From assembly GCA_002385705.1 (NCBI GenBank), contig DGDZ01000054.1:386-27154 (forward strand): a DNA stretch of 26,769 nt, given 5' to 3'. Source of the DNA: Verrucomicrobia subdivision 3 bacterium UBA3939. GTDB taxonomy: Bacteria > Verrucomicrobiota > Verrucomicrobiia > Limisphaerales > UBA3939. The notes under the pieces were generated by a model. That model had not been told where the DNA came from, did not search any database, and was given only the letters and a program-made list of their open reading frames with translations. Positions within the stretch are counted from its first letter, which is position 1. Each line of letters opens with the position of its first letter. Position numbers and translations under genes: made by a program. Of this stretch, positions 6,288 to 23,977 are shown piece by piece.

Positions 6288-6380
6288 AAGGGCGCCATGC
6301 TAGGGGAGCGCCCGTTCGAAATCAAAGCCGCCAGAACAGTGGAGGTCATCCCCGCCGGACCGCCCCGCCGCCTCCCGCAT

Positions 6381-6421
6381 CGGGACAATTCCGCGCGCAT
6401 ATGCGACAAGAATTGTCCCGG
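6381..6421. repeat. Copy 1 of a 41-bp nested palindrome: cgggacaattc-cgcgcgcatatgcgac-aagaattgtcccgg. It lies 94 bp upstream of the GH28 start.
   Basis: The outer 11-12-bp inverted arms (gggacaattc / gaattgtccc) and the inner palindrome gcatatgc are read directly. The second copy at 6478..6518 differs at 1 nt. Confidence 0.65.
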
Positions 6422-6477
6422 CGAAATTGGCAACTGCCTTGACCGCTGGTTCTTGCGAAAATCCGCGTTTTTGAGCC

Positions 6478-6518
6478 CGGGACAATTCCGCACGCATATG
6501 CGACAAGAATTGTCCCGG
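6478..6518. repeat. Copy 2 of the 41-bp nested palindrome. It lies 56 bp upstream of the PGPGW gene start.
   Basis: cgggacaattccgcacgcatatgcgacaagaattgtcccgg. Confidence 0.65.
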
Positions 6519-6573
6519 TCGACTGGATGGAATCCACTACTTGCGGAGTGCAGGGGATGACGGACGTTGAGGC

Positions 6574-6867
6574 ATGGAACCCCAGAATCCAAAGTCCGGG
6601 ACAAGCCGGCTGCGCAAGGCGGTGGGCTACGACAAGCTCTCGCCGGCGGTGCGTCGCGTGGTGTGCGGCATTGTGGGTGGTTTTCTCCTGTTCATCGGGG
6701 TGGCACTGCTCTTTCTGCCCGGGCCGGCGTTCGTGGTCATCCCGCTGGCGCTGGCGGTGCTCGCGATGGAGTTCGCCTGGGCCCGGCGGTACTGGGACAA
6801 GGTCCGCGGCTGGGCGGAGAAAGCAAAGCAACGCGCGTGTCGGAAGCGGGCTACTGCTCGCGGATGA
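6574..6867 (+). CDS. Small two-TM membrane protein of the PGPGW family (PF09656-like).
   Basis: LLFLPGPAFVVIPLALAVLAMEFAW contains the PGP(A/G)(F/W) signature flanked by hydrophobic helices. A GAGG lies 4 nt before the ATG. The 3' end overlaps the pheT stop by 17 nt on the opposite strand. Confidence 0.55.
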   Translation: MEPQNPKSGTSRLRKAVGYDKLSPAVRRVVCGIVGGFLLFIGVALLFLPGPAFVVIPLALAVLAMEFAWARRYWDKVRGWAEKAKQRACRKRATARG

Positions 6868-9328
6868 CCGCCTGGAGGCTGGTCTTCAACGCTTCCACCA
6901 GTTTGTCGTGCGCCGCGTTCACCTCCGCATCGGTCAAGGTGCGTTCGGCACTGCGATACGTGAACGCATAGGCCATGCTCTTCTGGCCGGCAGGAATGTT
7001 CTTTCCGCGGAACACGTCGAACAGTTCCACCGATTCGAGATTGGCCGGTTTGGCTTTGCGCACGGTCTGCAGCACGGCTTCGTGCGTGACCGCTTCGGGC
7101 ACGACCATTGCCACGTCGCGCCGGCTCGATGGAAACGCAGGCAGCGGCTTGAAGGACTTCGCCGGGTTCCGCCGCGCGATCAACTGGTCGAAGCTCAGTT
7201 CCGCAAGAAAGACCGGGTCGCGCAGGTCATACTGACGGGCGAGGGCGGGATGCAGTTGGCCCATTTCGCCCAGGGGCAGTTTGCCGATCTGCACGTCGGC
7301 CGATTCGACGAACAGTCCTGCGGCTTCCGGGCGTCGGGTGTAGACCAGACCGCGCACGCCGAAGTGTTCAAAGAACTCCTCAAGGAATCCCTTGAGATCG
7401 TGCAGGTCGAACTTCGCGCCGCGCCCACTGCCGCTCCAGAAGAGCGGATCGCGCTGTCCGGTCAGGGCGATCGCGACGCGGCGTTCCTCCCGGATCTGTT
7501 CGCCCTGCCTGGAGAACACGCGTCCGATCTCGAACAGGCCGACGTCGTAGTTCTTCCGGTTCACGTTGTGCCGCAGTGCGTGGATCAGGCCCACCAATAG
7601 CGTGGGGCGCAACACGTCCATGTCTGCGCTGAGCGGATTGGCCAGGTCCACCAGGTGAACGCCGGATCTCGAGTTTTGAACCTCGGATCTGGAGATCAGC
7701 GTCTGGCCCTGGGCTTCGTTCAGGCCGAGGCCGGTCAACAGGCGCCGCGCTTCGGCAATTTGATCGTGCACGGCATCGAACTCGTTCGAACCAATGGCGC
7801 CGCGCGGCGGCGTGGCGGGGATCTTGTCAACGCCATGGAGCCGCGCGACCTCCTCGATGAGATCGACCTCGCGTTTCAGATCCACGCGGAAGCTCGGGAT
7901 GCGGAAGGTGGCGGGTTCGACCGGTGCGTCCGCGCCAACGGGTTTGGGCTTGCGATGGGTAATCTTCAATCCGAGCTGGCCGAGGTAATACTCGACTTCC
8001 TCGGGTTTGAGCTCGATCCCGAGCAGTTCGTTGACCTTGTGATGCCGCAAGGTGATCTCGCGCGGAGCGGCGGGTTTGGGATACGCATCGACGACACCGG
8101 CGGCGAGCGTTCCGCCGGCGGTCTCGAGAATCAGTTGCGCGGCGCGTTGGCTGGCCCAGTCGCAGATGCCCACGTCGGCCCCGCGCTCGAAGCGGTAGCT
8201 GGATTCGCTGCGCAGGCCGAGCGCCTTGCTGGTGCGGCGGATATTGCCGGGATGGAAGTTGGCGCTTTCGATCAACACATCGACCGTGCGTTCGTTGATC
8301 TCGGTGTTCTGGCCGCCCATGATTCCGGCGAGTGCGATGCCTTTCTGTTCGTCGGCGATCAGCAGCATATCCGCGTTGAGCACGCGCTGCTGGCCGTCGA
8401 GCGTTGTGAACTTCTCCCGGTCGGTCGCGCGGCGCACCACAATGGCGGGCTTCCCGTCCGCGCCCGGGGCGATAAGGTGATAGTCGAACGCGTGCAACGG
8501 CTGGCCGACTTCCATCATGACGTAGTTCGTCACGTCCACCACGTTGTTGATGCTGCGGATGCCGACCTTCTCGAGGGTGGTGCGGAGCCAGTCGGGGCTG
8601 GGGCCGATCTTCACGCCCTGAACCACGCGCGCCGTGTACCGCGGACACAATTCAGGGTCGGCAATACGCACGGTGACAAGACTCGACACCGGGGTCGCGC
8701 TTTCCTGGATTTTGATCTCGGGCAGGCGGAGAGGATTGCCCGTGAGGGCGGCGATTTCGCGAGCGATGCCGATGACGCTGTTCCAATCGGGCCGGTTCGG
8801 CGTGGTTTCCAGGTCGAACATCTCGTCGCTGCCGCCGCGCCCGAGGTACTCCGAGAACGGCTGGCCGACTTTGGCGTCCTCGCGCAGGATCAGCAGGCCT
8901 TCCTCGCGCTTGAGGCCGATGCTCTCCGGATCGATGCCGAGTTCATCCGCCGAGCACATCATTCCGTGCGATTCGACGCCGCGGATTTTGCCGACCTTGA
9001 TGGTAAATGGTTCCTTTTCGCCCGGTTTTAACGGCAGCGAGGCGCCCGGGAGGATCAGCGGAACCTTGTCGCCGGGCTTGAAATTGTTGGCGCCGCACAC
9101 GATCTGCCGCTCGCCCTGGCCGTCGTTGACGCGGCAGACGGAGAGTTTGTCGGCGTTCGGATGTTTGTCGCGGGTGAGGACCTGGGCGACGACGATGCCT
9201 TCGAACTCGCCGCCGATTCTGTGAATGCCTTCGACTTCCAAGCCGAGCATGGTGAGTCGATCGGCCAGTTCATCCGCCGACCAATCGAAATCCACGTACT
9301 GCCTGAGCCAATTCAGAGTGACTTTCAT
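6851..9328 (-). CDS. pheT: Phenylalanine--tRNA ligase beta subunit. The ORF is open to 9367 with a non-ATG first codon. The conserved N-terminus MKVTLNWLRQYVDFD starts 13 codons in.
   Basis: The canonical PheT N-terminus (MK..LNWLR.YV) is present. The tRNA-binding, B3/B4, B5 and C-terminal FDX-ACB-like regions are recognisable (e.g. HAFDY, MGGQNTEI). Length is 825 aa. Confidence 0.95.
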   Translation of the reverse strand: MKVTLNWLRQYVDFDWSADELADRLTMLGLEVEGIHRIGGEFEGIVVAQVLTRDKHPNADKLSVCRVNDGQGERQIVCGANNFKPGDKVPLILPGASLPLKPGEKEPFTIKVGKIRGVESHGMMCSADELGIDPESIGLKREEGLLILREDAKVGQPFSEYLGRGGSDEMFDLETTPNRPDWNSVIGIAREIAALTGNPLRLPEIKIQESATPVSSLVTVRIADPELCPRYTARVVQGVKIGPSPDWLRTTLEKVGIRSINNVVDVTNYVMMEVGQPLHAFDYHLIAPGADGKPAIVVRRATDREKFTTLDGQQRVLNADMLLIADEQKGIALAGIMGGQNTEINERTVDVLIESANFHPGNIRRTSKALGLRSESSYRFERGADVGICDWASQRAAQLILETAGGTLAAGVVDAYPKPAAPREITLRHHKVNELLGIELKPEEVEYYLGQLGLKITHRKPKPVGADAPVEPATFRIPSFRVDLKREVDLIEEVARLHGVDKIPATPPRGAIGSNEFDAVHDQIAEARRLLTGLGLNEAQGQTLISRSEVQNSRSGVHLVDLANPLSADMDVLRPTLLVGLIHALRHNVNRKNYDVGLFEIGRVFSRQGEQIREERRVAIALTGQRDPLFWSGSGRGAKFDLHDLKGFLEEFFEHFGVRGLVYTRRPEAAGLFVESADVQIGKLPLGEMGQLHPALARQYDLRDPVFLAELSFDQLIARRNPAKSFKPLPAFPSSRRDVAMVVPEAVTHEAVLQTVRKAKPANLESVELFDVFRGKNIPAGQKSMAYAFTYRSAERTLTDAEVNAAHDKLVEALKTSLQAVIREQ

Positions 9329-9386
9329 TGGGGCGGCAACGGTAATTGGCGGGGAGGAGGCAGTCAACAGAGGGGGTTAAGGAAAA

Positions 9387-9436
9387 CACCCAACATCCAA
9401 ACACCCAACCTCCAACACCGAACATTCAACATCCAA
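9387..9436. repeat. Tandem heptanucleotide array, 7 units of CAYCCAA on the plus strand (TTGGRTG on the pheT-sense strand): cacccaa catccaa acacccaa cctccaa caccgaa cattcaa catccaa.
   Basis: Read directly. It is located 59-108 nt upstream of the pheT start, inside the pheT / SPFH divergent region. Confidence 0.6.
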
Positions 9437-9579
9437 TGAGGACGGCTCCAACAAGGCAAAGCTGAAGAGCTGAAATCAGAGTCAAGGAACCGTTTGCGGC
9501 TCGGTGGGCGTGATGTTCATTCCTGCTTGCTCCACGTGACAGCCGATCGGGCAACACAACGTTTTTCTGAAGAAATCGC

Positions 9580-9606
9580 TTGACGTTAATATCGAAGTGA
9601 TATCAC
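9580..9606 (+). promoter_or_regulatory. Candidate sigma70-type promoter for the SPFH operon: TTGACG followed by an extended -10 (tgaTATCAC).
   Basis: ttgacg at 9580-9585; gTGaTATCAC at 9597-9606. The AAAGGA Shine-Dalgarno is 9 nt before ATG 9634. Confidence 0.3.
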
Positions 9607-9633
9607 ATCGATACCAAGAAAGGACCTGTGAAT

Positions 9634-10644
9634 ATGAACTCGAATCCTGTGAAGTCGGTCAGTCGCGAGCGAACGGTCAACGCGGTCAATGGCTGGGCCA
9701 TGTTGTTCTTCAATGTCCTGCTCCTGCTGGGCGGAATAGCCGGGATCGTCGCAACGGTGACGAAGGTCGCGCGCACCAATGATCCGGCGTATCTCTGGTG
9801 GCTTGTTCCGTTCATATTCCTCGAGTTGCTTGCTTTCATCCTGATGTTCGGTCACTTCACGCTGCAGCCGAACGAGGCGCGGGTGTTGATCCTCTTCGGC
9901 GCCTACAAGGGAACCGTGCGCGAGAGCGGGTTCTGGTGGGCGAACCCGTTCTATTCCCGGGTCCGGACGAAAGTGCCGGTGCGTCCGACGACGGTGAACG
10001 TGCAGAGGGGGACTCACGGGCGCGATGTGGCGAGCGTCGTGCACCTGACGCGGGGAACGAAGATTTCGTTGCGCGCGCAGAATTTCAACAGCGACAAGCT
10101 GAAGGTGAACGACAAACGCGGGAACCCGATCGAGATCGCCGCGGTCGTGGTGTGGCGGGTGAAGGACACCGCGAGGGCGGCGTTCGACGTGGACGATTAC
10201 GAGAGTTACGTGCACATCCAGAGCGAGGCGGCGATCCGTCATATCGCGAGCCTTTACGCGTATGACCGCGGGGACGAGCATGAGCCGACGTTGCGCGAGA
10301 GCACGGACGAGGTGTCGGCGGGTTTGATGAAGGAGCTGCAGGAGCGTCTGGAGAAGGCGGGCGTGGTGGTCGAGGAAGCGCGTCTGACGCACCTGGCGTA
10401 TGCGCCGGAGATTGCGCAGGCGATGTTGCGCCGGCAGCAGGCGGAGGCGGTGATTGCGGCGCGGCAGAAGATCGTGCACGGTGCGGTGAGCATGGTGGAT
10501 ATGGCATTGCGCGAATTGGCGGACAAGGCTGTGGTGAAGCTGGACGACGAGCGGAAGGCGGCGATGGTGAGCAACCTTCTGGTGGTGTTGTGCAGCGAAT
10601 CGGAGACGACGCCGGTGATCAATACGGGCACGCTGTATGCATAG
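9634..10644 (+). CDS. SPFH / band-7 (stomatin-prohibitin-like) membrane protein. The ORF track begins at GTG 9628, but the ATG at 9634 has better Shine-Dalgarno spacing.
   Basis: N-terminal TM ([18 protein letters not shown]... [18 protein letters not shown]), then SPFH-like blocks ([36 protein letters not shown]), then an A/E/R-rich helical C-terminus. Confidence 0.8.
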
Positions 10645-10649
10645 GACTC

Positions 10650-10814
10650 ATGCCTGAAGAGCGAAAGTCATTCCTGTTGCGGATCCCGCCCGATTTGTGG
10701 AAGGAGCTCGAGAAGTGGGCGGCGGACGAGCTGCGCAGTGTGAACGGGCAGATCGAATACATCCTGCGCCAGGCGGTGGAGAAACGCCGCCGGGCGCAGG
10801 AAAAGGAGGAATGA
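10650..10814 (+). CDS. Small Arc/MetJ-type ribbon-helix-helix DNA-binding protein (54 aa). It is 6 nt downstream of the SPFH gene.
   Basis: [47 protein letters not shown] matches the Arc-like beta-strand (SFLLRIP) plus two-helix pattern of PF03869-like proteins. The ORF track's upstream start at 10590 overlaps the SPFH gene and is not needed. Confidence 0.6.
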
Positions 10815-10836
10815 CGAAGGCAAGCCTTCGACGCCC

Positions 10837-10857
10837 CACACCGAACCTCCAACCTCC
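10837..10857. repeat. Short second copy of the heptad family: caccgaa cctccaa cctcc.
   Basis: It uses the same heptad units as 9387..9436 in the same orientation, 23 nt after the RHH gene stop. Confidence 0.45.
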
Positions 10858-11024
10858 GGGGCTCATTCTCGCCATTTTTCCCGTAGGGACTGCCGGGAAC
10901 AGCCCACCGCTCCGGCTAACGCGGCAGGCTGTCGGTTGTCCTTTCGGGAAGAAGAAACGGGCAGGCGCGGGTTGAATCCGGGACGCCACGCGGGTGCGGT
11001 TTCGAAAATCGCGCGGAATTTATA

Positions 11025-11052
11025 TTGGCACCCGCTTATTGTTCATGATAAC
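11025..11052 (+). promoter_or_regulatory. Weak candidate promoter for the flotillin-like gene (TTGGCA -N17- tGATAAC).
   Basis: It sits in the 330-bp gap before 11145. A strong Shine-Dalgarno (GAGGA) is 6 nt before ATG 11145. Confidence 0.2.
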
Positions 11053-11144
11053 CACGGAGCCATTACAGACGACCGTCTGTATGGCCAAATGAACCCGCTT
11101 TGCAAAAATCATTCGGGAGGAATCCCCTAACAACTTGAGGACCT

Positions 11145-13322
11145 ATGTTCTGGCTTAAACTTCTCATCGCATTTGTTGTCGTGGTCGCGATGTTTCTGGG
11201 AGTGGCATCGCTCTTCTGCATTCGCAAGATTCAGCCCGGCCGCGCCGGTGTGAAAACCGGCTGGGGCGGGATCAAGGTGTCCTTCGACTGGATGATCCGG
11301 ATCCCGCTGGTCCAGACCTATCACATCGTCGATATCTCGGTGAAGAAGCTCGAGATCTCGCGCAAAGGCAAGGACGGGCTGGTGTGCAAGGACAACATTC
11401 GCGCGGATATCTCGGTGGCATTCTACATCCGCGTGGAAGCGACGGAGGAAAGCGTGCGGAAGGTGGCGCAGATGCTGACGCCGGAGCGCGTGTCGGATAT
11501 GGTGCAGTTGCGGGAGCTGTTCGAGGCGAAGTTTTCCGAGGCGCTCAAGACGGCGGGCAAGCAGATGGAATTTCACGAGCTGTTCACGGAGCGGATCAAG
11601 TTCCGCGATCAGATCCAGGCGACGATCGGCAAGGACCTGGACGGGTTCCTGTTGCAGGACGTGGCGATCGACTACCTCGAGCAGACGCCGCTGGATCAGC
11701 ATGATCCGGACAACGTGCTCGACGCGGAGGGCATCAAGAAGATCACGCAGATCACGCAGCGCGAGCGGGTGGTTGCGAACGAGCACGCCCAGCGCGCCAG
11801 CGTGCAGATCGAGAAGGAGAACGCGGACGCGGACATTGCGCGGCGCGAGCAGAAGCGGCGCAACGAAGAGGACAATGCGCGGCAGACGCGTGCGATCACC
11901 GAGGTGCGGGCCAACGAGGAGGCCGAAGCGCGCAAAGTGATCGAAGCCCGCCGGCTCGAGGTTGAGGCCAAGCGGCTGGAAGTGGACGAGGCGATCCGGT
12001 TGCGGACGGAGGACATGAACCGCGCCGTGCAGGAGCGCGAATACACGGTGAAGAAGGAGCGCCAGCGGCTCGAACAGGAAGCGCTGCAGGAGGGCGAGGA
12101 AGCGCGCGTCCGGCGCGAGCGCACGGTCGCCCTGGCCGAGCTGGACAAGGACGCGAAGGTCGCGGAAGCCGGTGTCGAGGTCGAGCGCAAGCGCGCGATC
12201 GTCGTCGCCGAGCAGAAGGCCGTCGTCCAGCAGGAGGAGGAGAAGCTGAATATCGAAGCGCGCATGACCGCCGAGCGCGTGCGCGAAGTGACGCTCATCG
12301 AGGCGGACATGAACGCCAAGAAGGAGCAGGTGGAGAAGGTGGTGGCGGCCGAGGCGCAGAAGGAGGCCGAGCAGCACATGGCGGAAGCCGAGAAGATCAA
12401 GGTGATCACCGCGGCGGAGGCGGCGCGCGAAGCGGCGTTGCGCGAAGCCGAGCGCATCCAGACCATCGCGGAGGCCGAAGCGAAGGCGTCCGAGCGCAAG
12501 CGTCATGCGATGGAGCAGGAAGCCGAGGGTGTCGCGGCGCAGGAAGCCGCCAAAGGCATTGCCGAGGCGAAGGTCATCACGGCCAAGGCCGGCGCGAAGA
12601 AGGTCGATGCGGCGGCGATCCGCGAGTTGGGCCTGGCCGAGGCGGATGTGATCAAGGCCAAGGGCGACGTGACGGCGGAAGTGACGCAGATGCAGGCCGA
12701 GGCGGAAGCGGAAGGCACGAAGGACAAGGAGCTGGCGACTGCGGCCGGCATCCAGGCCAGGGGCCTTGCCGAAGCGAAAGCCATCGAAGAGAAGGCGAAA
12801 GCGATGAAGCTGCTGCACGAGGCGGGGCAGGCGCACGAGGAATTCCGCCTGCGCCTGGCGAAGGAGCGCGACGTCGAGCTCGCCGCCATCAACGTGGAAC
12901 GTTACATCGCGGAAGCGCACTCGAACATCGTGGGCGAAGCGCTCAAGAACGCGAAGATCGACATCGTGGGAGGCGAGAACGACTTCTTCGAGAAGGTGGT
13001 GCGGGCCGTGGGCAGGGGCAAGGCCGTGGACCGGCTGGTCCAGAGCAGCGCCACGCTGACCGACCTCAAGACCAGTCTGTTCAACGGCGACGCGGAACAC
13101 TTCCGGGCGAAGCTGCGGCAGTGGGTGAAGGACTTCGGGGTCACGAGCGAGGACCTGAAGAACCTCACTGTGGCGGCGTTGCTGGCGAAACTGATCGCAT
13201 CGACGAAGGACAGCGGGCTGCAGTCGGTTCTCCGGTCGGCTCAGGCGATGGCAAAAGAGAGCGGGCTGGGCGACGTGCTGGCTTCGTCCGTGATTTCGGA
13301 ACCCGAGCTTGCCAAGCTGTAG
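11145..13322 (+). CDS. Flotillin-like protein (SPFH domain plus a long E/A/K/R-rich coiled coil, YqiK/FloT-like), 725 aa.
   Basis: N-terminal TM LKLLIAFVVVVAMFLGVASLF, then an SPFH core (TYHIVDISVKKLEI...ADISVAFYIRV), then ~350 aa of EA-repeat coiled coil and a globular C-terminal tail. This is the typical flotillin architecture. Confidence 0.85.
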   Translation: MFWLKLLIAFVVVVAMFLGVASLFCIRKIQPGRAGVKTGWGGIKVSFDWMIRIPLVQTYHIVDISVKKLEISRKGKDGLVCKDNIRADISVAFYIRVEATEESVRKVAQMLTPERVSDMVQLRELFEAKFSEALKTAGKQMEFHELFTERIKFRDQIQATIGKDLDGFLLQDVAIDYLEQTPLDQHDPDNVLDAEGIKKITQITQRERVVANEHAQRASVQIEKENADADIARREQKRRNEEDNARQTRAITEVRANEEAEARKVIEARRLEVEAKRLEVDEAIRLRTEDMNRAVQEREYTVKKERQRLEQEALQEGEEARVRRERTVALAELDKDAKVAEAGVEVERKRAIVVAEQKAVVQQEEEKLNIEARMTAERVREVTLIEADMNAKKEQVEKVVAAEAQKEAEQHMAEAEKIKVITAAEAAREAALREAERIQTIAEAEAKASERKRHAMEQEAEGVAAQEAAKGIAEAKVITAKAGAKKVDAAAIRELGLAEADVIKAKGDVTAEVTQMQAEAEAEGTKDKELATAAGIQARGLAEAKAIEEKAKAMKLLHEAGQAHEEFRLRLAKERDVELAAINVERYIAEAHSNIVGEALKNAKIDIVGGENDFFEKVVRAVGRGKAVDRLVQSSATLTDLKTSLFNGDAEHFRAKLRQWVKDFGVTSEDLKNLTVAALLAKLIASTKDSGLQSVLRSAQAMAKESGLGDVLASSVISEPELAKL

Positions 13323-13337
13323 AGGCGCCGCGGCGCT

Positions 13338-13358
13338 CCGGAGCGGACGCGTGTCCGC
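13338..13358. repeat. REP-like element (ccggagcg + hairpin gcggac-gcgt-gtccgc) in the 54-bp flotillin / giant-gene spacer. It is preceded by the 12-nt perfect palindrome gcgccgcggcgc.
   Basis: Read directly. Confidence 0.45.
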
Positions 13359-13376
13359 CCCGAACTGGTTTCGATC

Positions 13377-16300
13377 ATGGCCAGGAAAAAGTCAGATCCA
13401 CCCGCGCCGGTAGAGGCCACCGCTGCCGGCGCGCCGTCGGAGGCTTCACCCGCGTCCGATTCGGCGGCGCAGGCGCTGGGCAGCGCCACGTACGAGATCA
13501 TCCGGCAGCGCCTGCACGGGCTGGGCTCGACGTTGCGCGAGCGGATGTCGCAGTTGAACCGCCGGCGGCAGGAGGTGTTCGGCTCGGTCGAGTTCAAGCT
13601 GTTGCAGGCCGATCGCGTGGTGACGGCGCACAACTGCATTCCGCGCGACATGGTGCAGTTGGGCGATCAGCAGTTCCTGTTCGGGTTCAACGTGCAGTTC
13701 GGGTTGAAGAAAGAGATCGGCCTTGCGGACGTGTTTGCGATCTACACGCGCGACGAGGCGTCCGGGACATTCAAGGAGGCGGGGCTTGAACCGTTGCAGG
13801 ATCCGAACTTCGTCACGGATTTCAAACGGCTCTACAACGTTTACGAGAAGGCGTTCTTCGCCAAGTTCTCCGTCATCGAGGGCAAGCTCTACATGGTGTT
13901 CCGCGTGGGCACGAGCGTGACGGACATCGCCGTGTTCAAGTGGGCGTTCGATGACGGCCGGCTGCACTATGTGGACGGGCGGGCGGAGACCGAGTACCGC
14001 CGTGTCGGCTTTCCGCCGCAATACGAGTTCGCGTGGCGCACGCCGGACCGCGAGTCGTTCCGCTACGGCGACCACCCGCATGTTTCGATCGAGGATCGCG
14101 TTTTCGTCGAATGCGTCGGTGGCGACATCACGATCAAGGTCGAGGACAACACGAAGACGGGGGAGGGCATTTATTCGGAGCCGGTGGAGGACAAGTATCA
14201 GAAGGTGGACGACGCGGAGATCGCGTATGCGATCATCGGGCACGTGATTCTGTTGAAGATGCGGCCGTACAAGGAGAACCGGCCGCGGTACTTCATTTAC
14301 AATGAGAAGACCCAGACGGCGCACCGGGTGGATTCCATCGGGCAATCGTGCGCGCTGTTGCCGGAGGACCACGGGTTGATCTTCCCGGACGGGTATTACC
14401 TGGGGACGGGGGAATTGAAGCTGTTCGAGAGCAAGGAACAGGGAATGGCGATCGAGCGGGTCGTGCATTCTCCGAACGGCGAGGACGCGCTGTATGTCTT
14501 CTACAACCGCGAGAGCGGCGAGTACGTGCTGATGCCGTACCGATTGATTCCGCAGAAGGTGGAGGAACGCATCACCTGCCATGGCTTCTCGCTGTTCCCG
14601 TCCGGACACCTGCTGCTGTTCCGGGCGGAGGCGGAGCCGCAGAAGCACCACATGATTCAGTTGCGGCAGACGCCGTTCTATCAGCCCGGTTATGAACCGG
14701 CGGGACGAAAGGACGCGTTCCTGTATCAGGTCGGCAACAAGGACGTGGTGCGCTGCCTCGCGGAGTGCAACGAGGTGCTGACGCTGGTTGAAAAGGAGGA
14801 CCCGTACCCGGAGCTGTACGCGGATCTGGTGATGCGTTGCACGGCCATGCTGGACGCGTATCCGTGGCTGTCGGGCGAGGACGGGTTCAAGTTGGACGAA
14901 GCGCTGCGCGAGATCCGGAACGCGGCGGACAGGGCGGTGGACGAGTTCGACAAGGTGCGCCGCCTCAAGCGCGAGGCGGTGCAGCGCGTCAGCGACGTGC
15001 GCAAGCGGTGCGACGAACGGTTCCAGACCATCCGCCGCGCGAGCCTGAAGGCGCTGGGCGATTACGTCGTGAACCTGGCGGCGCTGCGCCAGTTGCGCGG
15101 GGAATTGATCACGCTCAAAGAGGTGCGCTACGTGGACCTCGCCCAGGTGGAGCTGATCGAGAAGGACGTGATCGCCCGGACGGCCGAGCTGTCGGACGCA
15201 ACGGTGAAGTTCCTGCTCAAACCGGAATCGCTGGACCCGTATCGGAAGCAGGCGGCCGGGTTTCTCGCGCAGGCCGGCAAAATCGCGAAGGTCGCCGAGG
15301 GCCGCGAACTCGAGAAGGCGGCTTCGGCCTCGGGCGCCGAGCTCGAGATGCTCATCGAGATCGTCAACAGCCTGAAGATCGAGGACGCGACGGAGACGAC
15401 GCGGATCATCGACGGGATCACGGCGGTGTATTCGACGTTGAACCAGGTGAAGGCGGCGTTGAAGCAGCGGATGCAGGAGCTGGCGGCGCACGAAGGGGCG
15501 GCGCAGTTCGCGGCGCAGATGAAGCTGCTGGGCCAGGCGGCGGCGAGTTATCTCGACCTGTGCGATACGCCGGCGCGTTGCGACGAGTATTTGAACCGGC
15601 TCACGGTGCAGATCGAGGAGCTCGAGGGGGTCTTTGCCGATTTCGAGGAATACACGGTGCAGTTGTCGGAGCGCCGGACCGAGCTGTACGAGGCGTTCGA
15701 GCAGCGGAAACTGGCATTGATCGAGCAGCGCAACCGGCGGGCGGGCGCGCTGATGACCGCGGCGGAGCGGATCCTGAAGGTGATCCAGAACCGTTTGAAC
15801 GGGTTCAAGACGGCCGAGGAGATCAACACCTACATGGCTTCGGACCTGATGGTCGCGAAGGTGCGGGAGATCATCGACCAGTTGATAGCGCTGGAGGACT
15901 CGGTCAAGGCGGACGATCTCGAGGGCCGGCTCAAGAGCGCGCAGCAGGAGGCGGTGCGCCAGCTGAAGGATCGCCAGGAACTGTTCGTGGACGGCGCGCC
16001 GGTGATCCAGCTGGGCAAACACAGGTTCAACGTCAACACGCAGCCGCTGGACCTCACCGTGGTGCACCGGGACGGGGTTCCCTGCGTTCACCTGACCAGC
16101 ACGAAGTTCTTCGAAGAGATCACCGATCCGGAGTACCTGTCCACGCGCGACGTCTGGGACCAGGAGGTGGTGTCCGAGAACGCGGACGTGTACCGCTCGG
16201 AATACCTTGCCTATCAGCTTTTGCGATCGCTGGAACCGGGCAATGGCGGCGCCGACACGAAGGCCAATGGCGCGGTGTCCGGCGCAAAGGCGACGCCGGC

Positions 16301-18872
16301 CGAGGTGCTGGCGCGATCGGACGAAGAGCGGCTGGCGATGGTGCAGGAGTTCGCGAGCGCGCGGTACCAGGAGGGGTACACGAAGGGCGTTCACGATCTG
16401 GACGCCGCGCGGATCTTCAGCGCCTTGCTGAACGCGCACGTGGCGCTGGAACTGGCGCGGTATCGCCCGGCGGCGCGCGCCTGCGCGTCCGTTTTCTGGT
16501 GCCGCTTCTGCCCGGAACCGGTGCGCGCCCTCTGGACGGCGAAGCTCAAGGGGTTCTCCGAGCGGAACAAGCTGTTTCCCGGTGAACGCGTCCAGCGCAA
16601 TTACATCGCCGCGCTGCAGGAACTGGTGCGCGAGTTCCTGCGGAACACGCCGCTGTATCCGGAGGAACTTGCGGACGACGCGGGCGAATATCTGTTCCAT
16701 GAACTGACCGGCGGCGAGGTGTTTGTTGTCAGCCGCGAGGCGCACCAGTTGTCGGTTGAGTTCGAGAAGCATCTTGCGGCGAAGGACGGGCGGCGCGTGT
16801 TTGAGCGGGCGCTCCAGCCGCTGGCGGAGCACCCGGACAGCGCGCTCGAACTGACGCGCGACTGGGTGCGGGGCTTTCTGCTGGGACGCCTCGGCACGTC
16901 GCAGTATCTCGAAGAAGTGACGTCGATCCTGTTCTGCGGCGACAAGGTGAAGCGGTCGGTCGTTCAGGCGGGAACCACCTGCGTCATCGAGGGGATGAGG
17001 GGCAGCCATCCGCGGATCGACGGGAACCGGTATCACTTCGATTATTTGGACTTTCACGACCGGTTGCGCCGGTTCGAGCGCGACGTCGTGCCGCGCTTTG
17101 AGCGGCATCGCGCCTTGAAACAGCAGTTGCTGGATCGGGAACGCGCGCGCCTGCGGCTGGACGAGTTCAAACCGCGCGTGCTGACGTCGTTTGTGCGGAA
17201 TCAGTTGATCGACCGGGTGTATTTGCCGCTGATCGGGGACAACCTCGCGAAACAGATCGGCGCCGCCGGCGACCAGAAACGCACCGATCTCATGGGCCTG
17301 TTGCTGGTGGTCTCGCCGCCCGGGTACGGCAAGACCACTCTGATGGAATACATCGCCAACCGCCTGGGCATCGTGTTCGTCAAGATCAACGGCCCCGCCC
17401 TTGGCCCGAACGTGACGTCGCTGGATCCCGAGGAAGCGCCGAACGCCGCCGCGCGCGAGGAGATCCAGAAGCTGAACCTCGCGCTGGAGATGGGCGACAA
17501 CACAATGATCTGCGTGGACGACATCCAGCATTGCAACCCGGAGTTTCTGCAGAAGTTCATCTCGTTGTGCGACGCGCAGCGGAAGATCGAAGGTGTCTGG
17601 CGCGGGCAACCGCGCACCTACGACCTGCGCGGGCGCAAGGTCGTGGTCGTGATGGCGGGCAATCCCTACACCGAGAGCGGCCAGAAATTCCGGATCCCGG
17701 ACATGCTCGCGAATCGCGCCGACACGTACAACCTGGGCGACATCATCGGCGGCCACGCCGACGCGTTCAAATCGAGCTACATCGAGAACGCGATCACCTC
17801 CAACCCCGTGCTGGCCTCGCTGGCGAACAAGAGCCAGAAGGACATCCGCGCGTTCATCCGCATGGCCGAGTCCGGCGACCGCGCCGCCGACGGCTTCGAG
17901 GGCAGTTACTCGTCGCAGGAGGTTGAGGAGATCCTGTCAGTGATGAAGAAGCTGGTGGCGATCCGCGAGATGGTGCTGCGCGTGAACCAGGAATACATCC
18001 ATTCGGCCGCCCAGGCGGATGAATTCCGCACCGAGCCGCCTTTCCGCCTGCAGGGTTCGTATCGCAACATGAATCGCCTGGCCGAAAAGGTGGTGCCGAT
18101 CATGAACGACGGCGAGGTGCGCGCGCTCGTGGTGGAACATTACCGGAACGAAGCGCAAACGCTCACCACCGGCGCGGAGGCGAATCTGCTCAAGTTCAAG
18201 GAGATCATCGGCGAGCTCTCGCCGGAGGAGAAGGCGCGCTGGGAAGAGATCAAGAAGACCTTCAAGCGCAACCAGCTCGTGCGCGGCGGCGACCAGTCGG
18301 ATCCGGTGGGGCGCGTGGTCGGGCAGTTGTCCGCCTTCCAGTCCGGGCTGCAATCGATCCAGGAAACGCTCGAAAAGCAGTTGTCGAAAGCGCAGGCGCC
18401 GGTGGTGCTGGACCTGTCGCCCGTGGGGAAGGGGTTGGAAGCATTGCAGGCGACGGTGGAGAAGCGGCTCAGCGAGGTGGCTTCATTCAAGCCCGGGCCG
18501 GAGCCGCAGGGAGTGGCCGCGCAATTGAGCGAGGGGCTGAAGGCATTGCGCGAGGACCTTGCCCGCGCGATCACGGCGGTGCACACGGGCACAATGGCAG
18601 AGAAGCTGCAAAGCCTGTCGCACGAGCTGGAGATGATCCACAGCACGCTGGCGACGTTGAAGGATCTTGCCGAGCAGCAGCGGAATCATCTGCGCAACGC
18701 GCAGGAACTGCTGGCCACCCGCGCGCGCCAGGGAACGGTGGAAATCGATCTGACGCAGGAGATGCTGGCGAATGAGCAAATGTTCCTCGAGAAAGTTCAG
18801 CAGGTGCTGAGCGAGGTGAAGGGCGAAGTGCCGCCGCCTGAAACGCAACCGGGTGAGCAGGGCCAAACCTGA
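13377..18872 (+). CDS. Giant 1831-aa protein with three parts. The first ~1300 aa are an uncharacterised, largely beta-rich N-terminal region. A single MoxR / AAA_5-class AAA+ ATPase domain follows. The last ~370 aa are a C-terminal coiled-coil tail.
   Basis: Walker A LLVVSPPGYGKTTL (nt ~17313-17345). Walker B and MoxR-like block MICVDDIQHCNPEFLQKFISLCD. Sensor-1 block VVVVMAGNPYTESGQKFRIPDMLANRADTYNL. Amino-acid composition is normal on the plus strand, whereas the 1436-aa antisense ORF is R/L/A-biased. Confidence 0.85.
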   Translation: MARKKSDPPAPVEATAAGAPSEASPASDSAAQALGSATYEIIRQRLHGLGSTLRERMSQLNRRRQEVFGSVEFKLLQADRVVTAHNCIPRDMVQLGDQQFLFGFNVQFGLKKEIGLADVFAIYTRDEASGTFKEAGLEPLQDPNFVTDFKRLYNVYEKAFFAKFSVIEGKLYMVFRVGTSVTDIAVFKWAFDDGRLHYVDGRAETEYRRVGFPPQYEFAWRTPDRESFRYGDHPHVSIEDRVFVECVGGDITIKVEDNTKTGEGIYSEPVEDKYQKVDDAEIAYAIIGHVILLKMRPYKENRPRYFIYNEKTQTAHRVDSIGQSCALLPEDHGLIFPDGYYLGTGELKLFESKEQGMAIERVVHSPNGEDALYVFYNRESGEYVLMPYRLIPQKVEERITCHGFSLFPSGHLLLFRAEAEPQKHHMIQLRQTPFYQPGYEPAGRKDAFLYQVGNKDVVRCLAECNEVLTLVEKEDPYPELYADLVMRCTAMLDAYPWLSGEDGFKLDEALREIRNAADRAVDEFDKVRRLKREAVQRVSDVRKRCDERFQTIRRASLKALGDYVVNLAALRQLRGELITLKEVRYVDLAQVELIEKDVIARTAELSDATVKFLLKPESLDPYRKQAAGFLAQAGKIAKVAEGRELEKAASASGAELEMLIEIVNSLKIEDATETTRIIDGITAVYSTLNQVKAALKQRMQELAAHEGAAQFAAQMKLLGQAAASYLDLCDTPARCDEYLNRLTVQIEELEGVFADFEEYTVQLSERRTELYEAFEQRKLALIEQRNRRAGALMTAAERILKVIQNRLNGFKTAEEINTYMASDLMVAKVREIIDQLIALEDSVKADDLEGRLKSAQQEAVRQLKDRQELFVDGAPVIQLGKHRFNVNTQPLDLTVVHRDGVPCVHLTSTKFFEEITDPEYLSTRDVWDQEVVSENADVYRSEYLAYQLLRSLEPGNGGADTKANGAVSGAKATPAEVLARSDEERLAMVQEFASARYQEGYTKGVHDLDAARIFSALLNAHVALELARYRPAARACASVFWCRFCPEPVRALWTAKLKGFSERNKLFPGERVQRNYIAALQELVREFLRNTPLYPEELADDAGEYLFHELTGGEVFVVSREAHQLSVEFEKHLAAKDGRRVFERALQPLAEHPDSALELTRDWVRGFLLGRLGTSQYLEEVTSILFCGDKVKRSVVQAGTTCVIEGMRGSHPRIDGNRYHFDYLDFHDRLRRFERDVVPRFERHRALKQQLLDRERARLRLDEFKPRVLTSFVRNQLIDRVYLPLIGDNLAKQIGAAGDQKRTDLMGLLLVVSPPGYGKTTLMEYIANRLGIVFVKINGPALGPNVTSLDPEEAPNAAAREEIQKLNLALEMGDNTMICVDDIQHCNPEFLQKFISLCDAQRKIEGVWRGQPRTYDLRGRKVVVVMAGNPYTESGQKFRIPDMLANRADTYNLGDIIGGHADAFKSSYIENAITSNPVLASLANKSQKDIRAFIRMAESGDRAADGFEGSYSSQEVEEILSVMKKLVAIREMVLRVNQEYIHSAAQADEFRTEPPFRLQGSYRNMNRLAEKVVPIMNDGEVRALVVEHYRNEAQTLTTGAEANLLKFKEIIGELSPEEKARWEEIKKTFKRNQLVRGGDQSDPVGRVVGQLSAFQSGLQSIQETLEKQLSKAQAPVVLDLSPVGKGLEALQATVEKRLSEVASFKPGPEPQGVAAQLSEGLKALREDLARAITAVHTGTMAEKLQSLSHELEMIHSTLATLKDLAEQQRNHLRNAQELLATRARQGTVEIDLTQEMLANEQMFLEKVQQVLSEVKGEVPPPETQPGEQGQT

Positions 18873-18880
18873 AACGCAAT

Positions 18881-19714
18881 ATGAAAAGAATCATCAGACG
18901 AGTCCAGAACCTGGGCCAGAAAGCGGCCCAGCTCCAACAGGCCATTCAAAACGTGCCGCCGAAGATCGCGGAGGTGCGGCAGGCGGTGGCCATGACGACC
19001 GGGCAGTTACAGCAGTTGCGAGCCGACCTCCGGGCCGGCGCGGCGGACCTGCGCGCCGACAACGAAGGCAGCCTGGTGCAGGCGTTGAACGAAGTGAACG
19101 GCGCCACGCAGGTCTTCGAACAGGCCGGGTATGAACTGACGGGCGTGGACATGGAATTGAGTCCGAACCAGCGCCTGATCGTTCACCTGGCGCGTTTCGA
19201 AGTGGTGGATCAGAGAACGCTCCAGTCCCTGCTCAGGGCCAATCAGCATGCAAAGACCGTTCACGGCATTCTCTGGTCGTTGATCCGCGCCGAGGAAATG
19301 GCGGCGCAGGTGGACGTGACGAACATGGTTTACCGGGAACTCATTGTGCACGTCGGGCCGATTCCGTCGGTGCGGATGAGCTGGGGCTATGCCGAGGAGG
19401 AGGAGGAGGAGGCACCGGTGGCACAGCCGGCGCCCGTTCAGACGACCGTGGTGTCCGGTGCCGCGCCGGCATCGGCGTCCGCTCCGACACAGTTCGCACA
19501 AACGACGTTTTTCGAATCGCGGTCGGTGCCGCAGCCGCAGGGTTCGGCGGCGGTGGCGAGCACGGCGACTTCGGATGTTTCGGCGACAACGACCGTCGCG
19601 CCCGCGGGCCAGGCGGAGGAATCGAGAGAGATGACATCGGCCGATTGGCGGCGGGATGCGCTGGAGCGGTTGAAGAAGAACCCGCATGTCTCGAAGTATC
19701 AGCGGCGGTTCTGA
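18881..19714 (+). CDS. Hypothetical 277-aa protein with an N-terminal coiled coil (Q/A/L-rich), a poly-Glu tract (EEEEEE), an A/T/S/V/Q-rich disordered region and a basic C-terminus. Its start is 8 nt after the giant gene stop.
   Basis: The ORF is in frame. Its composition is protein-like and differs from the antisense frames. Its tight spacing suggests translational coupling to the giant gene. Confidence 0.5.
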   Translation: MKRIIRRVQNLGQKAAQLQQAIQNVPPKIAEVRQAVAMTTGQLQQLRADLRAGAADLRADNEGSLVQALNEVNGATQVFEQAGYELTGVDMELSPNQRLIVHLARFEVVDQRTLQSLLRANQHAKTVHGILWSLIRAEEMAAQVDVTNMVYRELIVHVGPIPSVRMSWGYAEEEEEEAPVAQPAPVQTTVVSGAAPASASAPTQFAQTTFFESRSVPQPQGSAAVASTATSDVSATTTVAPAGQAEESREMTSADWRRDALERLKKNPHVSKYQRRF

Positions 19715-19773
19715 GGTTTACATGGCCTGTCGGGGCACCGCGACTTCCGGCTTCGCCTGGTGTTGGCGTTGTT

Positions 19774-20115
19774 ATGATTGAGAGGGTCGTTCTGATATTC
19801 TCCGGCGGCGCCGGTCTGTTGGTCCTGGCTCTGGGCATTGCCGCGTTTGTCCGCGCTCGAAATACTCCAGCCTCAAACGCGTGCATTAACAATCTGAGGC
19901 ATCTGAATGCCGTCAAGCAGCAGTGGGCGGTGGAGAACTCAATGAGCACGAACGCAATGCCGACATGGGAAGCCCTTCGCCCATATATGTCGAAGGCGGA
20001 ACAGGAAGGCCGGCCGGTCAGGCTTGTGTGTCCTGAGGGCGGAGTGTATCTGCCGGGCCGCACGGGCGATGCGCCCACCTGTTCGATCGGCGGACCGGAC
20101 CATACGCTGCACTGA
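19774..20115 (+). CDS. Small membrane-anchored protein (113 aa) with a pilin / pseudopilin-like N-terminus that lacks a prepilin leader. It contains a CxNNLR(H/Q)L motif reminiscent of H-X9-DG / DUF1559-type proteins.
   Basis: MIERVVLIFSGGAGLLVLALGIAAFVRARNTPASNACINNLRHLNAV resembles the FTLIELLVVIAII...CxNNLKQI pattern. The ORF is open from 19645, but that extension has no start codon and no hydrophobic logic. Confidence 0.4.
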   Translation: MIERVVLIFSGGAGLLVLALGIAAFVRARNTPASNACINNLRHLNAVKQQWAVENSMSTNAMPTWEALRPYMSKAEQEGRPVRLVCPEGGVYLPGRTGDAPTCSIGGPDHTLH

Positions 20116-20135
20116 TCAGGGAGCATCGCCTGCCT

Positions 20136-20672
20136 ATGTCACGCCGACAGAAATGGATCTGGATCGGGCTGTTTGTGGTGATTCTCTCCGCACCGTTGTG
20201 GCTGTCCTTCCTTGGTTTTTTCGCGTGGTCGCCTGTCAACTGCTGGCATTACGACGTGGACATCCGGAGCGGAAGGGTTCGTTACACTCGCTATCTGCTC
20301 TTTGCGCAGGTGGCGCAACGCGTGGAAGAGACGGCCCTGAGCAAAGCTCTGCAGCCCGAAGATCTTGCGGGCGTGCAGCCGGACTGGCACCGCGTCGCTG
20401 CTTTTTCGCCGGGAGTCCACCACTCGCCGCACTACACATTCCATTCCGCCCTCGGGCAAATGCGCGAGTTGGAGATGATCTGGAGAACCGGTGGGTTCAC
20501 GCCGGCAGCTCGCCGCGCCAGCGCCCGGCAGGTCCTGCGGCTCTGGCAGCGACACGGGCATGATGGCTCGGCACAGGAGTATTTGCGGGCTCTTTCCGAA
20601 ATTGCGCTTCGCAGTGATGTGGCATCCAAAGGCACGGATGAGGAAGATCTGCCGGCACCCGAGCAGCCATAG
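20136..20672 (+). CDS. Hypothetical N-terminally anchored membrane protein (178 aa).
   Basis: TM segment WIWIGLFVVILSAPLWLSFLGFFAW. The gene lies 20 nt after the previous gene and is followed by an intrinsic terminator. Confidence 0.45.
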   Translation: MSRRQKWIWIGLFVVILSAPLWLSFLGFFAWSPVNCWHYDVDIRSGRVRYTRYLLFAQVAQRVEETALSKALQPEDLAGVQPDWHRVAAFSPGVHHSPHYTFHSALGQMRELEMIWRTGGFTPAARRASARQVLRLWQRHGHDGSAQEYLRALSEIALRSDVASKGTDEEDLPAPEQP

Positions 20673-20686
20673 TCGAATCCACTCAC

Positions 20687-20710
20687 GCGGGCGTTTCACC
20701 CGCCCGCTTT
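20687..20710 (+). terminator. Rho-independent terminator: gcgggcg-tttcacc-cgcccgc followed by TTT. It closes the plus-strand block.
   Basis: A 7-bp GC stem and a T-run on the plus strand, 15 nt after stop 20672. It overlaps the last codons of the convergent methyltransferase gene. Confidence 0.55.
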
Positions 20711-21604
20711 GCGTCCGCAGAGCCAGTGAGGTTTGATCCAGAAATGCAGGCGGGCGCCCATGTTGATGAACTGCGTCATGCCGCACTGGCGCATGTGCGC
20801 GGTCAACTCGCGGCGGCTCAGGCCGATCTCGTGCGTGTTCGACAGCCTGGCCACCCGATACGAGGAGAACGTGTGAACCAGGTTGGGCTCGTTGCAGAGC
20901 AACAGCCAGCCCCCGGGTTTCAGGCATTCCGCCGCGGATTGGATCGCCTCGCGCCAGGAGAACGCGTGATGCAACGCTTCATAAACGAGCACCGCGTCGT
21001 AATAGCCCTTCGGGCCGACGTCTTCGGCGACGGATTCCATGGGCGCGACTTCAAAGCGCAGGACGCGTTGGAGTCCCTTGGCTTCGAGGCTGGCGATGCG
21101 TTTGCGCGCCCATTCAATGCTGGACGCGGCAATAGAGGTGCCCGTGACTTCGTATCCGATCGCGGCGAGGAACTCGGAAGTCCAGCCGAAGCCGCATCCC
21201 ATCTCCAGCACCCGGGCGGGAGGCAGGATGCCGCAACGTTCGAGTGATTCGTGGATCAGACAGAAGTCGCGCAGGTAGGTCCGGAGCCGCGGGCCCACCC
21301 AGAACGGTTTCTGCATGTCGGCGAGGGCGGCGGTTTCGAGCGTGACGCCCGGGAGCGATTCCGAGCACTCGATCTCGGCCCTGTAGGTGGCTTCGCGGTC
21401 TTCGAACCTGGGCGGAAACAACCCGGCGGCGTAGTCGCGCAGGATCAGGTGGAGCCCAGCCTGAAGCTTCTCGCTCCTGGACAATTGCATGTTCCAGTGC
21501 TTGCAGTTGGCCTCGTAAAGATTCTTCCCCCGGCGAAGCAAGGGGCTTTCCGCCAGCCACCCGGCGAGCCGCCGCAGAGGTGTCACTTCGCCGGCGCGCG
21601 CCAT
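20696..21604 (-). CDS. Class I SAM-dependent methyltransferase.
   Basis: Motif I VLEMGCGFGWTSEFLAAIGYEVTGTSIA. Motif post-I/II region DAVLVYEALHH. KPGGWLLL is present. Its start is 1 nt after the pheS stop, on the same strand. Confidence 0.8.
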   Translation of the reverse strand: MARAGEVTPLRRLAGWLAESPLLRRGKNLYEANCKHWNMQLSRSEKLQAGLHLILRDYAAGLFPPRFEDREATYRAEIECSESLPGVTLETAALADMQKPFWVGPRLRTYLRDFCLIHESLERCGILPPARVLEMGCGFGWTSEFLAAIGYEVTGTSIAASSIEWARKRIASLEAKGLQRVLRFEVAPMESVAEDVGPKGYYDAVLVYEALHHAFSWREAIQSAAECLKPGGWLLLCNEPNLVHTFSSYRVARLSNTHEIGLSRRELTAHMRQCGMTQFINMGARLHFWIKPHWLCGRKAGG

Positions 21605-23310: not shown

Positions 23311-23520
23311 TCAGTGGGTGAAGGGCAGGTTCTGCTTGATGCGGTATTCGTCCGCGGGATGCACGGTGGTGGTGCCGCGCAGATTGCGACGGCGCTTGGG
23401 ATTCTTGGTCTGGGCCAGATGCCGTTTCCCTGCCCTGGCGCGCAGGACCTTGCCGCCGGCCGTCACCTTGAAACGCTTGGCCACGGATTTCCGGGTCTTG
23501 ATGCCTTTTGGACGTCGCAT
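23311..23520 (-). CDS. rpmI: 50S ribosomal protein L35.
   Basis: PKGIKTRKSVAKRFKVTAGGKVLRARAGKRHLAQTKNPKRRRNLRG matches the L35 pattern (AKRFK..G.GK...R....KRH). It is a 69-aa basic protein, 17 nt upstream of rplT. Confidence 0.9.
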   Translation of the reverse strand: MRRPKGIKTRKSVAKRFKVTAGGKVLRARAGKRHLAQTKNPKRRRNLRGTTTVHPADEYRIKQNLPFTH

Positions 23521-23977
23521 AAAGTCAGAATCGAATTTCTATCAAAAAGAGCGCGCAATATAAGGAGCGTGCACCGGCCGTGCAAGCAGTTATTTTTCAC
23601 CAACCGAGCGCCGTCGGAGCGCGGCTGTCCCCAGCCGCAGCAGGTGGACGAAGCTTTTCAACCACGGATCCCGCGGCCGCGGGACGGATGGACACGGATA
23701 GGAAACGGCAACGTCAAAGGCCTGACGCGCGAATCGACGCGGAAGGTGGCGAACCGCTGTTCAGGCTGAAGGCCTCACACAAGACAGCCCGGGGCAAGCG
23801 AGCCTGCGAGCGCCGCGCCGGGTGACGAAATCCAGAATTGGATTCCAGCACTGTAAGTGCGTCACAAACGGAACGGCGAACGGCGTCAAGTACCAAAGAC
23901 AAGAACCACACGAAAGGACGTCGGGCAGGCCGAAGCTCCGGGACGAAGAAGCCGACACGCCTTCCGGACATCGTCGC

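Follow-up and report, generated by a model that had tools for sequence, protein, structure and literature searches.

A conserved SPFH and ribbon-helix-helix gene cassette with a predicted three-box operator, and its probably independent flotillin-AAA+ neighbour, in Verrucomicrobia subdivision 3 bacterium UBA3939

The stretch analysed here, referred to as the window, comprises 26,769 nucleotides of Verrucomicrobia subdivision 3 bacterium UBA3939 (assembly GCA_002385705.1, contig DGDZ01000054.1, positions 386 to 27,154 of the forward strand). Its subject is a series of three genes encoding an SPFH/Band-7 protein, a small Arc-like ribbon-helix-helix (RHH) protein and a flotillin-like protein. The first two are a conserved two-gene cassette found across many phyla, whose expression, to judge from a motif conserved ahead of it, is very probably autoregulated through an operator overlapping the promoter. 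The series probably consists of two independent transcription units that are neighbours only in the source species, the first being an autorepressed SPFH-RHH unit and the second being formed by the flotillin and a giant AAA+ ATPase.

The SPFH/Band-7 protein is encoded on the plus strand at 9634-10644 (336 aa from an ATG, identified by Pfam Band_7 and by its relatives), with an in-frame GTG upstream at 9628. Its stop codon ends at 10644 and the RHH gene (10650-10814, plus strand, 54 aa, Pfam RHH_5) opens with the ATG at 10650, leaving a gap of 5 nt. The flotillin-like gene (11145-13322, plus strand, 725 aa, Band_7 in the N-terminal part) follows after exactly 330 nt (10815-11144). A first-pass annotation of this DNA had reported the same three open reading frames (ORFs), and they are present, on one strand, where it placed them; its 330-nt gap is correct, and the 6 nt it gave between SPFH and RHH are in fact 5. 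Its domain identities also hold, Band_7 and RHH_5 being above their cut-offs and Band_7 being recovered in the N-terminus of the flotillin. All three genes are real and under strong conservation. Proteins of the window were matched at 100% in the Verrucomicrobia metagenome-assembled genome GCA_012842865.1, the order SPFH-RHH-flotillin is the same in all contigs of the source species, and relatives show 70-81% identity for SPFH (within Verrucomicrobia) and 77-85% for the flotillin. The 54-aa ORF was predicted by independent gene callers too; the earlier proposal depended on its being conserved, and orthologues were found, with a core that is near-invariant between phyla.

The pairing of SPFH and RHH was followed in two sets of loci. 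The SPFH-anchored set comprises the best 80 loci of a scan with one genome per species, from Verrucomicrobiota, Gammaproteobacteria, Acidobacteriota and Planctomycetota, and the reverse set comprises RHH-anchored loci from an independent metagenome collection. With phmmer an RHH homologue is recovered downstream of SPFH on the same strand in 78 of the 80 species loci, and BLAST clustering finds one in all 80; besides it no gene is conserved around SPFH. From the other side, SPFH is found immediately upstream of RHH in 76 of the 78 testable metagenome loci. The co-occurrence that the first-pass annotation proposed to examine is near-constant, and its "dedicated DNA-binding protein" is indeed the constant partner of the first SPFH protein. 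In four unrelated, flotillin-free contexts, each SPFH homologue (72-81% identical to that of the window) is followed, -4 to +7 nt away, by an RHH_5 gene of 55-57 aa. The pair was also identified in annotated records of three further phyla: in Deinococcus (SPFH and a "hypothetical protein"), in Bacillus thuringiensis (where RefSeq labels the RHH protein "HicB family antitoxin" and the locus also contains purD and pcrA) and in Parabacteroides distasonis (where the RefSeq label is "Arc family DNA-binding protein"). The SPFH family comprises 869 clusters (50% identity) at E<=1e-30 in an exhaustive HMMER search, a relative is encoded in at least 514 species of the scan, and identity across phyla is 56-81%.

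Plasmid and phage searches placed the SPFH-RHH family on large replicons and in a few short unannotated "phage" records, and gave no evidence of a mobile-element function. In about one locus in eight a bPH_5 gene (bacterial PH domain, membrane; about 180 aa, two transmembrane segments, E=5e-11) is inserted between SPFH and RHH, as in loci L021 (3748-4287), L054 (3555-4100), L058 (5058-5681) and L071 (5280-5816) and in some ten metagenome loci; its product may be an accessory third component. Defence-type genes were identified near some pairs: prok_STING in L001 (13565-14425), and PIN/PhdYeFM and CAP12-PCTIR TIR genes in L006/L007 (16841-17610 and 20444-21011). They are not systematic, RHH being the only gene conserved around SPFH.

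The separation of the cassette from the flotillin is seen from both directions. In the flanks of 170 SPFH/RHH-anchored loci, which add up to 1.1 Mb, no flotillin or giant-ATPase homologue is present, and SPFH-RHH is absent from three flotillin loci of other Verrucomicrobia (L008-L010). The order in L009 is pheT, flotillin, giant ATPase, a 264-aa gene and pheS, which is the synteny of the window minus SPFH-RHH. In the complete chromosome OW818681.1 the two units lie about 2.4 Mb apart, and other genes surround the closest SPFH relative (81% identical). The "RHH between two SPFH paralogues" of the first-pass annotation is not sustained as a functional unit, given the lack of flotillin in all 170 loci and of an operator upstream of the flotillin gene. 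In the window pheT (6851-9367, minus strand) and pheS (21606-22637, minus strand), which are usually adjacent, are split by about 12 kb. Between them lie SPFH-RHH, the flotillin, the DUF3686-AAA+ gene, the gene of a 277-aa protein and a methyltransferase gene, and L009 presents the same split without SPFH-RHH.

The predicted RHH operator (9588-9615, unstranded, assigned by motif conservation) comprises three GATATC-type boxes with an 11-bp period: AATATC at 9588-9593, GATATC at 9599-9604 and GATACC at 9610-9615. A candidate -35 hexamer of the SPFH-RHH promoter, TTGACG, was read from the sequence at 9580-9585 on the plus strand and is assigned provisionally; a TTGAC-type element stands just upstream of the boxes in most homologous loci. 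Just after the hexamer and 20 nt ahead of the start codon is a 24-bp near-perfect palindrome (9590-9613, 12-nt arms, 92% complementary). GATATC was found no more than 120 nt upstream of SPFH in 76 of the 80 species, where 0.016 would be expected per 120 nt, and the sites aligned on their central box give the consensus GATaTCA-N4-GATATCA-N4-GATATC, with the same 11-bp period. A position weight matrix built from the sites of 75 species scores 38 bits at 9587-9616; elsewhere in the 26.7-kb window it remains below 3, those matches being shifted registers of the same site, and the next best unrelated site scores below 0. When whole RHH-anchored loci of the independent metagenome collection were scored, the top match stood at most 140 nt ahead of SPFH in 43 of 46. 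Deinococcus and B. thuringiensis also have a recognisable form of the element, and in Parabacteroides a variant with AATATCA boxes was identified. Upstream of the flotillin (10815-11144) the matrix finds no site, the best score being -11.9 against 38 at the SPFH promoter.

The three-box motif stands in the upstream region where the first-pass annotation proposed to look for a motif match, and its suggestion of autoregulated expression is upheld as very probable for the SPFH-RHH pair, whose conserved predicted operator overlaps the pair's own promoter. The 15-nt direct repeats upstream of SPFH, probably its "heptad arrays", were rejected as an RHH target because none of the 173 other loci has them. 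Upstream of the SPFH promoter, at 9383-9434, a 19-23-nt repeat (CACCSAACMTYCAAC...) stands in three tandem copies with a 15-nt period, and a fourth copy lies just after the RHH stop at 10835-10857. These four matches, with 0.02 expected in the window, flank the whole SPFH-RHH cassette; neither the other 173 loci nor the "empty" spacer between pheT and the flotillin in L009 contains one. The repeat could mark an insertion of the cassette, or could be a genome-specific intergenic repeat.

The RHH protein matches Pfam RHH_5 (PF07878) with E=1.4e-6 and 28.4 bits (cut-off 26), an assignment also precomputed for its homologues, and reaches 19.2 bits with Arc (PF03869), just below the cut-off of 20.4. 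Weak full-length profile matches to AmrZ and Arc were identified in the PDB (E 0.2-0.95), and its RSVNGQ turn resembles that of both proteins; Pfam matches to HicB and ParD_like are weak and below their cut-offs. The protein is composed of a 45-aa conserved core, in whose predicted DNA-contacting strand K6, F8 and R11 are invariant, and a low-complexity tail that is variable in length and composition. With a 5-nt gap, its translation is probably coupled to that of SPFH.

The SPFH protein matches Band_7 (PF01145) at residues 76-279 with E=1.6e-25 and 90.6 bits (cut-off 23.6). Its predicted architecture starts with a hydrophobic hairpin of two helices, continues with an SPFH domain that carries a variable insertion and closes with a helical C-terminal region, whose end (..NTGTLY) is conserved among homologues up to the last residues. 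The hydrophobic segments are at about 21-44 and 55-76, and the SPFH domain would lie on the cytoplasmic side. The NCBI annotation (P0001) is of 314 aa, starting at Met23 and cutting part of the first hydrophobic segment; the 336-aa start is preferred because residues 12-21 are invariant among homologues. An AlphaFold2 (AF2) model from a 13-sequence alignment places helices at 10-48, 51-87 and 257-297, and is poor, with an overall pLDDT (predicted local distance difference test) of 46, although blocks within 21-70 reach 72-83; it was too low to be used for a fold search or a structural subfamily and was dropped. Single-sequence and profile searches of the SPFH protein and the flotillin against PDB sequences gave no significant match, for the SPFH protein none to any solved SPFH structure. 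No profile-profile similarity was detected by hhalign between the 336-aa SPFH protein and the 725-aa flotillin; therefore they are not recent paralogues, and the word "paralogues" used by the first-pass annotation describes them poorly.

The first unit (9580-10814) would work as follows. A membrane-anchored SPFH scaffold would be co-transcribed, and probably translationally coupled, with the Arc-like RHH protein, whose dimers, probably three of them on the predicted operator, would bind the GATATC boxes, which recur every helical turn (11 bp). Since these boxes overlap the core promoter, the RHH protein would repress its own operon. Such repression would hold the level of a cage-forming SPFH protein in check, with induction upon titration or inactivation of the repressor. 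Several points weigh against this reading. In most loci a good -10 hexamer (TATGAT) shares sequence with the central box, so that part of the motif conservation could reflect the promoter and not repressor binding. A strict sigma-70 scan called no promoter in 9368-11200, so the promoter positions are placed by comparative conservation only. After the RHH gene just weak terminator-like hairpins were found, no more frequent than in shuffled sequence, and with no clear intrinsic terminator some read-through into the flotillin is possible in the source genome. Finally, the RHH protein has no sensor domain that could relieve repression, and with the failed structure prediction (pLDDT 46) the subfamily and topology of the SPFH protein are assigned from sequence features alone.

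A partner switch is a further, unlikely reading: the SPFH assembly would sequester the RHH protein at the membrane, by analogy with PspA-PspF, and the state of the membrane would feed back on transcription. The RHH protein lacks a ligand domain and goes strictly with a single membrane protein, conservation of the SPFH C-terminus extends to the final residue, and the two-transmembrane hairpin would put the SPFH domain on the side of the N-terminus, presumably the cytoplasm. However, the RHH tail is not conserved, so that any contact would need the 45-aa core, and simple negative autoregulation accounts for all the data. An ancient cross-phylum switch of this kind, in which membrane damage or remodelling releases or captures the RHH protein and so retunes transcription from the GATATC operator, appears unlikely. 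If true, it would represent a previously unrecognised, near-universal envelope-stress circuit and offer a first clue to the function of an SPFH subfamily that is so far uncharacterised.

The toxin-antitoxin or defence logic of the first-pass annotation, in which SPFH would be the effector of a toxin-antitoxin-like or anti-phage pair and RHH its antitoxin and repressor, finds even less room and is improbable. Many type II toxin-antitoxin systems likewise consist of two genes in one operon, one of them for a small RHH autoregulator, the RefSeq label in B. thuringiensis and the weak HicB and ParD_like matches point the same way, and the neighbourhoods are patchy and variable, some of them with prok_STING, TIR or PIN genes. 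However, those matches are under the Pfam cut-offs, PADLOC gave no match for SPFH, RHH or flotillin, and no Pfam toxin family was identified for the SPFH-RHH pair. No SPFH protein is known as a toxin of such a system. The RHH protein, being a DNA-binding core with a variable low-complexity tail, offers no conserved toxin-binding segment, the 56-81% identity across phyla is unlike that of fast-evolving toxin-antitoxin or defence genes, and the contexts include housekeeping genes (purD/pcrA in Bacillus, rpmB/smpB in L006).

The second unit (about 11003-19714) would be formed by the flotillin with its own promoter-like block, then a DUF3686/AAA+ ATPase and a lineage-specific 277-aa protein. The flotillin-like protein, which public sources call "flotillin family protein" or YqiK, comprises an N-terminal transmembrane segment, an SPFH domain, a coiled coil of about 400 aa rich in Glu, Ala and Lys and, at the C-terminus, a conserved domain. 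At full length (725 aa) it gave no Pfam match even at E<=10, probably because the long coiled coil triggers the composition-bias filter of HMMER; the first 252 residues alone match Band_7 (E=8.9e-12, 45.8 bits, residues 28-169). Automated domain tables are blank for the flotillin family for the same reason. Outside the SPFH domain there was no match to Pfam, its Flot domain included, to NCBIfam or to PDB sequences, where the composition filter may hide weak ones, and NCBIfam returned none for the flotillin segments, the 277-aa protein or the DUF3686 region. As to the flotillin models that the first-pass annotation had recommended, the flotillin-specific C-terminal model is unmatched; the features of the family (anchor, Band_7 and coiled coil) are present.

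The conserved partner of the flotillin, which the first-pass annotation missed, is a giant DUF3686/DUF7902/AAA+ protein of 1831 aa (13377-18872, plus strand), starting 54 nt after the flotillin stop; the distance is 10-55 nt across L008-L010 and the window. Pfam identifies DUF3686 at residues 53-495 (E=4e-169), DUF7902 at 618-701 (E=2e-24) and AAA at about 1290-1434 (E=4e-6). Its coiled-coil middle (residues 501-899) has a PADLOC match to LmuB, the SMC-like protein of Lamassu (E=1.9e-6), which is probably a generic coiled-coil/SMC-like similarity and not a sign of defence membership. The third gene of the module (18881-19714, plus strand) encodes a protein of 277 aa that is confined to Verrucomicrobia. 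A helical hairpin with an alpha/beta domain is predicted with confidence for residues 1-170; a disordered Pro/Ala-rich linker with a conserved F.QSSFFE.R follows, and the C-terminus carries the conserved motif DWK..AL.RFKKMPD.SKY. Searches by fold and by family gave no informative match. In the three other contexts, L008-L010, flotillin homologues 79-83% identical are likewise followed by a DUF3686/DUF7902/AAA+ protein of 1831-1843 aa and then by a protein of 264-279 aa.

Upstream of the flotillin, a promoter-like block (11003-11054, plus strand) is invariant in the alignment of the four flotillin loci, whose upstream genes are all different, and lies within the last 150 nt or so before the start codon. 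It comprises an A-rich stretch, TTGGCA at 11025-11030, TG at 11046-11047 and TAACCA at 11049-11054 (TTGGCA-N18-TAACCA). The block agrees with the candidate promoter that the first-pass annotation gave to this gene, and its conservation suggests that it would act as the flotillin's own promoter. That SPFH, RHH and flotillin make up one operon or system in which the RHH protein regulates both SPFH-family scaffolds is very hard to maintain: the genes do stand in series on one strand, with no strong terminator after RHH and in an arrangement stable throughout the contigs of the source species, but none of the 170 SPFH/RHH-anchored loci contains the flotillin, flotillin loci elsewhere are without SPFH-RHH, the spacer at 10815-11144 is without an operator-like site, the flotillin has this conserved block of its own and the closest SPFH relative is in another neighbourhood.

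Among the 30 ORFs of the window scanned against Pfam there is no match to the NfeD family, in agreement with the first-pass annotation, which had noted that no NfeD/YqiJ-type partner is present; beside the flotillin, NfeD, YqiJ and YuaF are absent both in the window and in L008-L010. Such absence is normal for most SPFH subfamilies (Hinderhofer 2009, PMC2636767). Rfam and tRNA scans of the window were both empty. ORFs of 150-260 aa without a Pfam match were identified at 6346-6831 (minus strand), 19341-20927 and 23314-24518, some of them maybe spurious given the high G+C content.

Two known themes meet in the cassette, the SPFH operon that has its own partner gene and the RHH autorepressor. 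With autorepressors of the Arc/Mnt/AmrZ/CopG kind it shares an RHH protein of about 50 aa, of strand-helix-helix type with an Arc-like RSVN(G/S) turn, and a predicted operator in which short palindromic boxes recur at about every helical turn over its own promoter. On promoter-overlapping boxes of this sort Arc binds cooperatively as tetramers, and CopG or MetJ as arrays. Unlike in those systems, the RHH gene is downstream of, and dedicated to, a membrane SPFH gene and not genes of phage immunity, plasmid copy number or toxin-antitoxin function, the pair of regulator and predicted operator is conserved across phyla, and the Arc Pfam score remains just below its cut-off. Type II toxin-antitoxin systems with RHH antitoxins (ParD, RelB, CopG-like) also have a small RHH protein in a bicistronic, predicted autoregulated operon, which sometimes earns the antitoxin label in RefSeq; here, however, the cargo gene comes first, no toxin family is recognisable, there is no conserved neutralising tail, conservation across phyla is high and PADLOC is silent.

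In bacteria the functions of SPFH proteins are poorly defined, and the conserved partners NfeD and FtsH are the main clues to them. The SPFH-NfeD operons (stomatin/YbbK-YbbJ, FloA-NfeD, PH1511-PH1510) resemble the cassette in joining a membrane SPFH protein to a small, strictly conserved partner in a tight operon, and differ from it in that the partner is a membrane NfeD OB-fold/protease and not a soluble protein of DNA-binding type. SPFH subfamilies 3, 4 and 6-12 are without NfeD, and subfamilies 6-12 are listed without documented members (Hinderhofer 2009, PMC2636767). For the second unit the association of flotillin and AAA+ ATPase, linked to membrane dynamics, has already been described from comparative genomics, in a paper that also identifies DUF3686 as a beta-propeller (Ravi et al. 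2024, PMC11237479). Those operons comprise a flotillin, an AAA+ protein (beta-propeller/coiled-coil), YqiJ/YuaF and sometimes CesT/Tir-PspA. The unit of the window is alike in that a protein with transmembrane, Band-7, coiled-coil and C-terminal domains is followed by a giant DUF3686-coiled-coil-AAA+ ATPase, and unlike them in that it lacks YqiJ/YuaF, PspA and CesT/Tir genes, has the gene of the 277-aa protein in third place and gives no match to Pfam Flot. The literature search found, in the collection searched, no paper mentioning DUF3686 and none linking SPFH with RHH, Arc, CopG or HicB, which is not proof of novelty; both proteins of the cassette are already named generically in genome annotations. 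The SPFH-RHH cassette with its predicted three-box operator appears to be an undescribed variant of the two themes.

The "two scaffolds plus regulator" arrangement is, as far as the comparison of loci indicates, a species-specific juxtaposition that had been over-read, and the interest of the locus lies in the cross-phylum pair of regulator and predicted operator and not in the flotillin next to it. A large SPFH subfamily, present in at least 514 species and 869 clusters at 50% identity, has a minimal RHH protein as its invariable partner, and in Bacillota, Deinococcota and Verrucomicrobiota alike the three-box GATATC motif has been kept with the pair. The pair, which occurs in tractable hosts such as the B. 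cereus group, Deinococcus and Parabacteroides, gives predictions that can be tested: a binding site, repression and the conditions of induction.

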